This document shows positions 10,494-11,841 of a stretch of DNA of 64,000 nt, one piece after another. The stretch's first letter is position 1. Every line of letters begins with the position of its first letter. Below the pieces are notes generated by a model. The model did not search any database. It saw only the letters and a list, made by a program, of their open reading frames with translations, and was not told where the DNA came from. The stretch lies in assembly GCF_988243305.1 (NCBI RefSeq), contig NZ_OZ547136.1. One strand, 5' to 3'. Made by a program: the position numbers and the translations under genes.

Positions 10494-11841
10494 TTATATA
10501 AAACAGTAAAAGTGAATCAGCTTAACAAATGCATCTTTCATTTGTTTTTGCTGCTGCTCGCTTCCATTCTGGTTGCGGACTTCACCATAGTGACACAACT
10601 GTTCTTCTGCCAGGATATGCCGGTTAAAAGCCTGCATGATGCCAGACACCTCCGTTTTCAGCTCACTGACCGTCATGTATTTTCCCCGCTGTTCATCCGG
10701 ACGGTTCAGGCGCTCAGCCAACAGCTGTAAGCGGGTCATGCCTTCGTTCCAGCCAGTCATCGCCTCTTCCGGGAGCGCACGACTCCTTGCACTCTTCTGC
10801 CAGTTATCCACCATTTCCTGAACGCGAGGATTGTCGGGGAAAAGTACCATCAGTTGCTGCAGCAATTGCACACTGCGTTGCAGGTTGTATGCCGGGGGGA
10901 ATTCTGTCAGTCGCGTTATCTGCTGACCGGAAAGGGTTATCCACTCTGACGCATGATTTAACAGTGTTCTGCTGAGCTGCATCATCTGGTCTGCTGAAAG
11001 CACATCCGGTGAGGGTGTCAGCAGCGCCCTGAGTTGCTGCTCCGCCGGTGATGGCTGTGTCAGAAACTGCCATCCCGGAATGGCCACGCAGACCGCCAGC
11101 AATGCCGTACAGACACCTGTAACAAACGTTTTCAGAAACGTGAGCGGGGATTTTTGAAGGAAGAGTGTGGGCTCTGTTTTTGTTTCAGAAACAACATACA
11201 CCAGACGGGAGTGCGGCAGGGTCTGATGTTCCTGCACATCCGGAGCTTCAAGCCTGAGTGCCTGCGCCAGTAGCGTTACCGGAGACGATACTTCCCCCTG
11301 CACAGGCTGGTTCTCCAGGCGGGTGATATATCCCTTCACCATGGCTTCCGGTAAAGCCACTTTACTGCTCTGTTTAAGTTCGTGCCAAGCCTGCGTATTT
11401 TCATGGAAGGAGATCACTCAGTGTCTTCAGGAATGTTTCGGTCTGATACAGCAGGGGCAGGTTGTCACGGTTATCCGGAGGCATGGCCCGGAGCGTTTTT
11501 TGCAGACGGTTGAACAGACCGGTAATAATTTCCAGCCGGGAGTGTGTATTCAGCGGCCACATCACTGACCAGTGATGCCGGGTCAGCGCAGCAATCAGAG
11601 CCAGCCCTTCATTCAGACCACTTAACCCTGTTGTATGCATCCGGGCAATGGTGTACCAGGATGCCGTCTGTAATTCCACGCCATTGTGTTCATACAGACG
11701 CAGGCAGAGCGTTTCCACGTAACGCCAGTCCACATCAGGGCGTGCCGGGTGGGTCAGTTTGCTGATTTCATCGCGCAGGGCAGCATAATCCGGTAATGAC
11801 CGGGGGTCACCACCGGTTTTCAGTTTCACTTCAGAAGTCAT
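10494..11841 (-). pseudogene. VasL-like type VI secretion accessory gene (ImpA_N domain plus TM and periplasmic region), split into two frames
   Basis: 146-aa ORF (11401-11841) with ImpA_N-like motif GDPRSLPDYAALRDEI...PDVDW; 307-aa ORF (10494-11417) with TM helix; frames differ, junction at 11401-11417; no other T6SS genes nearby. Confidence 0.5.

Follow-up and report, generated by a model that had tools for sequence, protein, structure and literature searches.

A frameshifted tagA allele with an insertion-sequence scar, probably left behind by the loss of its type VI secretion system

The gene described here lies on the minus strand of a 64,000-nucleotide (nt) stretch of DNA, hereafter the window (contig NZ_OZ547136.1 of RefSeq assembly GCF_988243305.1), where two open reading frames (ORFs) overlap between positions 10494 and 11841. 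These two ORFs are the halves of one frameshifted allele of tagA, a gene of the Sci-1-type type VI secretion system (T6SS). This allele is very probably a pseudogene, stranded by the deletion of the Sci-1 core and broken by the scar of an insertion sequence (IS). We are dealing, that is, with a known gene in a known kind of state, that of a decaying pseudogene. TagA is a membrane-associated accessory protein that binds TssA. In enteroaggregative Escherichia coli (EAEC), it stops the polymerisation of the sheath and anchors and holds its distal end, and the killing activity left in a tagA mutant is about 12% (PMC6450956, PMC6730261).

A preliminary description of the region, made from its letters and ORFs alone, had proposed an ImpA_N-type N-terminal ORF and a C-terminal ORF with a transmembrane (TM) segment, in different frames and overlapping by 17 nt, and the ORF listing, Pfam and hydropathy agree with it. 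ORF1 encodes 146 amino acids (aa) from an ATG, and ORF2 encodes 307 aa from a GTG (Table 1). Their frames differ (11841-11417 = 424 = 3x141+1), and the overlap extends over 11401-11417. The suggested profile search of the N-terminal domain identified residues 8-109 of ORF1 as ImpA_N (PF06812; E=1.1e-18, 67.9 bits against a cut-off of 26.9), while residues 164-302 of ORF2 match VasL (PF12486; E=5.2e-29, 101.6 bits against a cut-off of 27.3). Between both domains there is a lone hydrophobic segment, FLKTFVTGVCTALLAVCVAIPGW (ORF2 aa 94-116, nt 11070-11138; aa 229-253 in the intact allele), whose Kyte-Doolittle 19-residue mean reaches 2.08. The NCBIfam model TIGR03362 matches positions 15-126 of ORF1 with 81.7 bits, far under its cut-off of 230.1, and TIGR03363 scores 43.6 against a cut-off of 160.85; these models for TssA match the N-terminal domain only, and neither the Pfam nor the NCBIfam profiles found a VasJ-type C-terminal domain in the split gene. 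The core T6SS protein TssA (ImpA_N plus VasJ, EC042_4540) shares the N-terminal ImpA_N with the gene of the window, which, unlike TssA, has a TM helix and VasL instead of VasJ. The break, located after codon 143, parts the domain in common with TssA from the membrane anchor and VasL, and the single polypeptide with ImpA_N, TM helix and VasL is not encoded by this allele because the +16-nt lesion splits the frame.

That a single gene has been broken is revealed by its intact relatives. A search with the joined protein returned many single-ORF relatives of 443-463 aa from E. coli and Salmonella, which hold both Pfam domains and some of which are 96-98% identical to it. Alignment to these relatives, the course recommended in the preliminary description, located the lesion: over about 1.5 kb, the window differs from the closest intact allele (L005) by 16 extra nt at 11399-11414, five clustered substitutions at 11387-11397 and two single changes elsewhere. 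Deletion of 11399-11414 yields 443 codons with no internal stop. In place of the LSDTLARHELKQ of the intact proteins, the window encodes LSDLLP* and MISFHENTQAWHELKQ. At the lesion site, CTGAGTGACACACTGGCCCGGCACG is common to all intact alleles; all other alleles, whose identity ranges from 67% to 98%, keep a single ORF and have CTGAGTGACACACTGGCCCGG or close variants there. ORF1 is 96% identical to residues 1-145 of the T6SS-embedded and EAEC alleles. Among 5,426 complete E. coli genomes, 321 share the same 70-nt junction with the window. The alleles carrying the split are at least 99% identical; as no divergent allele has it, the split is not a conserved feature. Among intact tagA alleles, the pairwise ratio of nonsynonymous to synonymous substitution rates (dN/dS) is 0.2-0.4, with the cluster adjacent or not, a sign of purifying selection in the past that favours none of the readings weighed below.

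The lesion coincides with a 26-nt repeat, TGATCTCCTTCCATGAAAATACGCAG (minus strand 11391-11416), as had correctly been pointed out in the preliminary description, and the repeat explains the lesion, since it is the terminus of an IS21-family inverted repeat. By sequence match, the junction motif can be assigned to the terminal 25 nt of an ISEc12-type left inverted repeat (IRL). In the sense of tagA, CACACTGGCCC of the intact alleles is replaced by TCTCCTTCCATGAAAATACGCAGGCTT, with a net gain of 16 nt. Intact alleles show CTGAGTGA, CACACTGGCCC and GGCACG in succession, and the window shows CTGAGTGA, TCTCCTTCCATGAAAATACGCA, GGCTT and GGCACG. The heptamer TGAGTGA is present in tagA and again 22 nt inside the IS end. 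An annotated IS21-like ISEc12 on an IncF plasmid has the motif at its outer edge; in this complete element, both ends start with TGCGTATT and continue, further in, with GAAGGAGATC, and both carry internal repeated sites typical of IS21 ends. This element is flanked by a 6-bp target duplication (GCCAGC), its IRL begins with TG, and the counterpart on the right (IRR) is present. The window junction matches the ISEc12 IRL at 24 of the 25 terminal positions, 28 of the first 29 and 33 of 37 overall, and the 25 nt of the lesion match solo IRL ends elsewhere at all 25 positions. Unlike the complete ISEc12, the window has only the terminal stub, with no istA/istB, no second end and no target duplication.

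Solo IS ends of 33-60 nt also occur upstream of a DUF932 gene, within a T6SS cluster and at 6617-6650 of the window. The last of these holds a second copy of the motif (6617-6640, 23 of 24 positions; none expected in shuffles) and occupies an equivalent position in EAEC 042-type and other islands. The motif is present in 3,269 of the 5,426 complete E. coli genomes, in which it has a median of 3 and a maximum of 17 places, and 890 of the places in this set are on plasmids; a 58-nt extension of it appears in 1,064 PLSDB plasmids. When one genome per species was searched, there were only 4 matches, all of them on contigs of gut metagenome-assembled genomes (MAGs). Exact copies lie on MAG contigs labelled Bacillota, Collinsella and Lachnospiraceae (L028-L031), which are probably mis-binned enterobacterial or plasmid DNA. 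A literature search for the motif sequence found none.

Other identities for the motif were considered and rejected. Rfam gave no match to a structured or regulatory RNA in window 5500-13000; on the IncF plasmid locus its sole hit was CopA, at a distance of 60 nt from the motif. A coding junction, in which LSDLLP* precedes MISFHENTQ, does not fit either, because the short ORFs downstream differ in length and sequence among copies. As a protein homology, the BLASTP likeness to the 107-aa ORF at 6336-6659 spans 9 residues and reflects DNA identity instead. A native element of the IncFII replicon is ruled out by both ISEc12 ends and the target duplication. A strong DNA fold is predicted upstream of the DUF932 gene (z = -4.96), and the two strong GC-rich hairpins that it contains both lie outside the motif. 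In the solo IS end that overlaps the 5' end of the 107-aa ORF, an AAGGAGA that looks like the Shine-Dalgarno sequence of this ORF can pair with a TCTCCTT about 26 nt downstream (6617-6680, minus strand), an arrangement kept in EAEC 042-type islands.

The locus that corresponds to the split gene in EAEC 042 (L027, NC_017626.1) lies next to a complete T6SS cluster. The cluster runs tssB, tssC, tssK, tssL, an OmpA-family gene, hcp, tssH and further genes, and then vgrG, tle1, tli1, a PAAR gene, tssM, tssA, a hypothetical gene, tssF, tssG, tssJ and tssE. After tssE come genes for a 133-aa hypothetical protein, a GIY-YIG nuclease, a NERD-UvrD protein annotated as '3'-5' exonuclease' and a small hypothetical protein, followed by the ImpA_N/VasL locus, two hypothetical genes, ibrA, ibrB, perC and two more hypothetical genes, with the Sci-2/aai T6SS further on. 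The ImpA_N/VasL locus of this strain is a single intact ORF of 455 aa, which over its full length has 88% protein identity with an intact relative of the window allele. If annotated genes are counted from tssA, which is EC042_4540 (PMC6745524), this ORF becomes EC042_4550. A literature search for that tag gave no match. Presumably it is the TagA of Santin et al. 2018, a study cited in PMC6730261 and PMC6450956. The split gene is orthologous to the experimentally studied TagA of EAEC, with the reservation that the step to the locus tag is a provisional one, made by gene count.

The Sci-1 (T6SS-1) TagA of EAEC 042 and 17-2 is like the window allele in its order of ImpA_N, hydrophobic helix and VasL, with 88% identity once the frame is repaired. 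Both have the same flanks, with NERD-UvrD and the small ORF upstream and ibrA, ibrB and perC downstream, on the same pheU island, where EAEC carries both of its Sci clusters (PMC6730261). Unlike EAEC TagA, the window allele is frameshifted by an IS scar and its Sci-1 core is deleted; in addition, the window has one unrelated ORF of 214/235 aa in place of the pair of genes that separates tagA from ibrA in EAEC 042. TagA/VasL of Vibrio cholerae, a Class B TssA-like protein (PMC6745524, PMC7545191), also has ImpA_N followed by a membrane-anchoring hydrophobic region, and its role in ending sheath assembly is likewise an accessory, non-core one; however, by description, it is only a distant relative, and it is encoded inside the large cluster of V. 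cholerae.

Positions 1-41258 of the window are 99.7% identical to E. coli CFSAN061761, in which the island site is a tRNA-Phe next to dsbD/yjdC, that is, pheU, and the annotation of that island contains no T6SS genes. Across the 64 kb, tblastn with 16 Sci-1 proteins, among them every core protein of the EAEC 042 cluster, 5 Sci-2 proteins and 2 aspV-type proteins matched tagA only, in line with the earlier remark that no other T6SS core gene is present. The parts of the window that are missing from CFSAN061761 encode pseudouridine/nucleoside genes, a DDE transposase, TetR-family regulators and a major facilitator superfamily (MFS) transporter, and their largest ORFs gave no T6SS match by Pfam. 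Three blocks of the window are collinear with EAEC 042 (Table 1), and about 29 kb of EAEC 042 (from tssB to tssE, plus the genes for the 133-aa hypothetical protein and the GIY-YIG nuclease) correspond to 552 nt in the window. This short filler opens at 14114 with TGAAGTGGTCAACAAA and includes, at about 14123-14383, a pseudogene annotated by the RefSeq pipeline PGAP as 'integrase core domain'. The opening TGAAGTGGTCAACAAA resembles the IS911 terminus. According to these comparisons, the window is best described as an EAEC 042-type pheU island from which the T6SS was excised.

Orthologous loci of EAEC 042, other E. coli and Salmonella are encoded with a T6SS cluster, and that of the window is not. 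One full cluster of E. coli ends with tssJ, vgrG, effector/immunity genes, tssE, a small ORF and tagA (83% identity), and a full cluster of Salmonella has the same order with tagA at its end (77% identity). In another genome, tssG-tssJ-tssE are truncated by IS66 and followed by defence-type genes, an intact tagA and ibrAB. Of two further islands, one has a tssE pseudogene with a broken tagA and the other a tssE fragment with an intact tagA. T6SS-less islands elsewhere carry tagA copies broken in different ways; one genome has an already split allele with an additional IS2, and sequence type 131 (ST131) retains only a C-terminal VasL stub of tagA, cut by IS66. The erosion of the T6SS cluster forms a graded series, from the full cluster through the IS-truncated cluster, the lone tagA and the broken tagA to the stub. 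In a wider survey of the family, sampled as one representative per 50%-identity cluster, E. coli and Salmonella formed one tight cluster and the next relatives had about 44% identity, one of them at the end of a T6SS cluster and another beside tssA. A tssA-tagA pair (44% identity) is found in another bacterium (L007 8371-11383) with no other T6SS gene within 10 kb.

The data allow a history to be proposed in which an IS-associated deletion would have taken about 29 kb, comprising the whole Sci-1 core and two neighbouring genes, while the downstream block of NERD-UvrD, small ORF, tagA, ibrA, ibrB and perC stayed. Without a T6SS machine to serve, tagA and the small ORF preceding it would have decayed. 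An IS21-family element may then have entered the linker of tagA between ImpA_N and the TM helix and may later have been lost through a deletion between the TGAGTGA of tagA and the identical heptamer in the IS end. Such a deletion would leave a stub of 22-25 nt, a net gain of 16 nt, a premature TGA and, by chance, a downstream frame initiated by GTG. This GTG sits within sequence common to tagA and the IS scar, and inspection of the sequence upstream of it revealed no strong Shine-Dalgarno sequence. The missing T6SS, the split domains and the poor context of the GTG make a non-functional remnant the most likely state of the tagA of the window.

Several observations weigh against this reading. 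The two frames are open and have products predicted by PGAP (for the 3' part, only one of 163 aa from an internal ATG), so that residual expression is possible. Intact tagA persists in several islands with no T6SS core nearby, and this, together with the dN/dS values given above, points to loss of the cluster without immediate decay. A full-length IS21-family element at the tagA site was not found in the genomes examined, the interrupted alleles inspected being hit by IS2/IS3 at other positions. The change of GGCCC to GGCTT, two substitutions past the IS terminus, is not explained by insertion plus deletion. Finally, the absence of the T6SS core applies to the 64-kb window, and the source genome may hold a T6SS elsewhere.

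The route by which the IS end reached tagA may be other than an insertion. It is possible, albeit rather unlikely, that tagA never held an IS and that an IS21-type end at another place served as the template for a short patch, through template switching or short-tract conversion with the microhomologies CTGAGTGA on one side and GG/GCA on the other. The patch is indeed short and flanked by sequence common to tagA and IS ends, the five clustered substitutions lie alongside it as in templated repair, and no full-length-IS intermediate has been seen; donors would also be abundant, given the 3,269 genomes with IS21-type ends and the copy only 4.7 kb away at 6617-6650. However, this nearby copy differs inside the patch (A vs G) and diverges after ACGC, the copies in complete E. 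coli genomes match at most 26-29 nt of the 32-nt patch, with GGCTT lacking a donor, and insertion followed by microhomology deletion accounts for the exact TG terminus against tagA DNA. The CC to TT substitutions are explained by neither insertion-deletion nor templated copying. An error of sequencing or assembly, with a gene that is really intact, can be practically discounted: lone frameshifts in otherwise conserved genes are often errors, but here there is a net insertion of 16 nt of non-repetitive sequence with adjacent substitutions. The same junction in 321 complete, independently assembled genomes excludes a sequencing error and contradicts the idea, left open in the preliminary description, that resequencing might restore a single frame.

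The same description had offered two options, a decaying remnant or an ImpA_N protein repurposed outside the T6SS. Synteny, repair of the frame and the restriction of the lesion to one allele speak for the remnant, and repurposing found no support. In its most developed form, the latter would be a functional split, with ImpA_N made as a free protein of the cytosol and VasL as a separate one of the membrane, the two translationally coupled at the 17-nt overlap and acting with the neighbouring ibrAB or NERD-UvrD or modulating a T6SS encoded elsewhere, which we regard as highly improbable. Both frames are open with an overlapping stop and start, the allele is common (321 complete genomes), the tagA-ibrAB neighbourhood recurs, and the TagA-like protein of V. 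cholerae has been proposed as a competitor of TssA (PMC6745524). Nevertheless, the split is missing from every divergent allele, and the near-identity of the split alleles (at least 99%) indicates that descent, rather than selection, accounts for how common they are. At the junction there is an IS terminus instead of a coupling signal, the GTG lacks a good ribosome-binding site, tagA and ibrAB are already neighbours in EAEC 042, in which tagA works for Sci-1, and the split allele has been struck again by IS2/IS3. Nor does TagA have a PADLOC match: membership of a known defence system was considered and dropped after no match was found for tagA, its downstream neighbour, ibrB, perC or two small hypothetical genes. 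There is likewise little chance that intact tagA in islands lacking the T6SS core (L002, L010, L012-14) acts alone or in trans, where it may tune a second T6SS elsewhere or work with NERD-UvrD/ibrAB. The free 146-aa ImpA_N fragment of the split allele might still compete with TssA.

Recognising the split gene as a tagA remnant removes a false lead, that of an ImpA_N protein in a new role, and the scientific weight of the case is small. What has been obtained is a clean natural series of T6SS island erosion. Motifs of 25-60 nt like this repeat in E. coli islands and IncF plasmids should be taken for IS ends or scars rather than for regulatory elements. Annotation-based surveys will miscount tagA, because PGAP splits even the intact gene of EAEC 042 (L027 34070-35437) into three partial pseudogenes, one of them labelled 'POTRA domain-containing protein'. 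In many genomes, the part of tagA that codes for the TM helix (11037-11165 in window equivalents) carries the 'POTRA domain' label, and a 133-nt 'POTRA domain' fragment is found in many genomes of Shiga toxin-producing E. coli (STEC; O157, O145, O111).

Table 1. Coordinates of the split tagA gene and of the features around it in the window
Feature	Window	Strand	EAEC 042 (L027)	Details
tagA, whole (very probable pseudogene)	10494..11841	-		ImpA_N, linker, TM helix, VasL; frameshift; intact 443-463-aa alleles align end to end
ORF1	11401..11841	-		ImpA_N (nt about 11515-11820) and start of linker; ends at a TGA made by the inserted DNA
ORF2	10494..11417	-		rest of linker, TM helix 11070-11138, VasL at nt about 10512-10928
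Lesion	11392..11416	+		TGCGTATTTTCATGGAAGGAGATCA, 25 nt; terminus of IS21-family (ISEc12-like) left inverted repeat
Diverged solo IS21-type IRL end	6617..6650	-		23/24 motif match; overlaps 5' end of 107-aa ORF 6336-6659
Small ORF preceding tagA	11893..12169	-		frameshifted, 29-nt deletion at about 12015/12016; 101 aa in EAEC 042
NERD + UvrD-type helicase/nuclease gene, '3'-5' exonuclease'	12235..14022	-		PADLOC C3a187 'NERD+UvrD', E=8.7e-139
Deletion scar	14113..14663			552 nt; IS3-family transposase fragment
Collinear block	6318-9550		40368-37128	96% identity, blastn
Collinear block	10518-14112		35395-31767	91.6% identity, blastn
Collinear block	14664-16172		2811-1293	89% identity, blastn

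The genes that remained next to tagA also deserve a description. The NERD-UvrD gene of the window is 95% identical to that of EAEC 042, where it lies between tssE and tagA. This gene, together with GIY-YIG and OLD-type nucleases in other strains, suggests that defence genes colonised the tail of the Sci-1 cluster. The small ORF always precedes tagA, in T6SS clusters as well as in orphan loci. Its break was seen by alignment to EAEC 042 and to a T6SS-embedded locus, its tblastn match is split, and PGAP labels it 'frameshifted'. The 29-nt deletion of this ORF also occurs in L005, in which tagA is intact, and in L017, a full T6SS cluster, an in-frame stop interrupts the ORF, which makes its status as a real gene doubtful. 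The filler at 14113-14663, with its IS3-type integrase-core pseudogene, probably marks the route of the 29-kb loss.

A second T6SS locus, at aspV, can be followed in CFSAN061761, one of the genomes with the identical allele, where it is reduced to remnants (L026 16039-24759). These consist of an Rhs core pseudogene, a C-terminal fragment of TssM, an Hcp gene and a second, intact ImpA_N/VasL gene, whose product is TagA-like and 28% identical to that of the window gene. Within the TagA-type family, one E. coli protein (P0110) has the N-terminal domain of TssK fused to the VasL part.

Further features of the window are far from tagA. A three-gene Shango-type anti-phage system occupies 464-6288 on the plus strand and encodes a TerB_N/TerB_C protein (PADLOC SngA, E=6e-100), an ATPase (SngB, E=9e-187) and a DEAD-box helicase (4090-6288). 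The segment 41259-48856, which is missing from CFSAN061761, encodes two PfkB kinases, an indigoidine-synthase-A-like protein of the pseudouridine glycosidase type and a nucleoside transporter. The end of the window (59600-64000) contains genes for a DDE transposase, TetR-family regulators and an MFS pump, a set that looks Tn10-like. Lastly, a glycyl-radical propanediol (grp) microcompartment cluster is located on the same island at about 16500-33000 (L001 26228-41701, L004 1-7344), with two reverse-transcriptase gene fragments between grpO and grpP.

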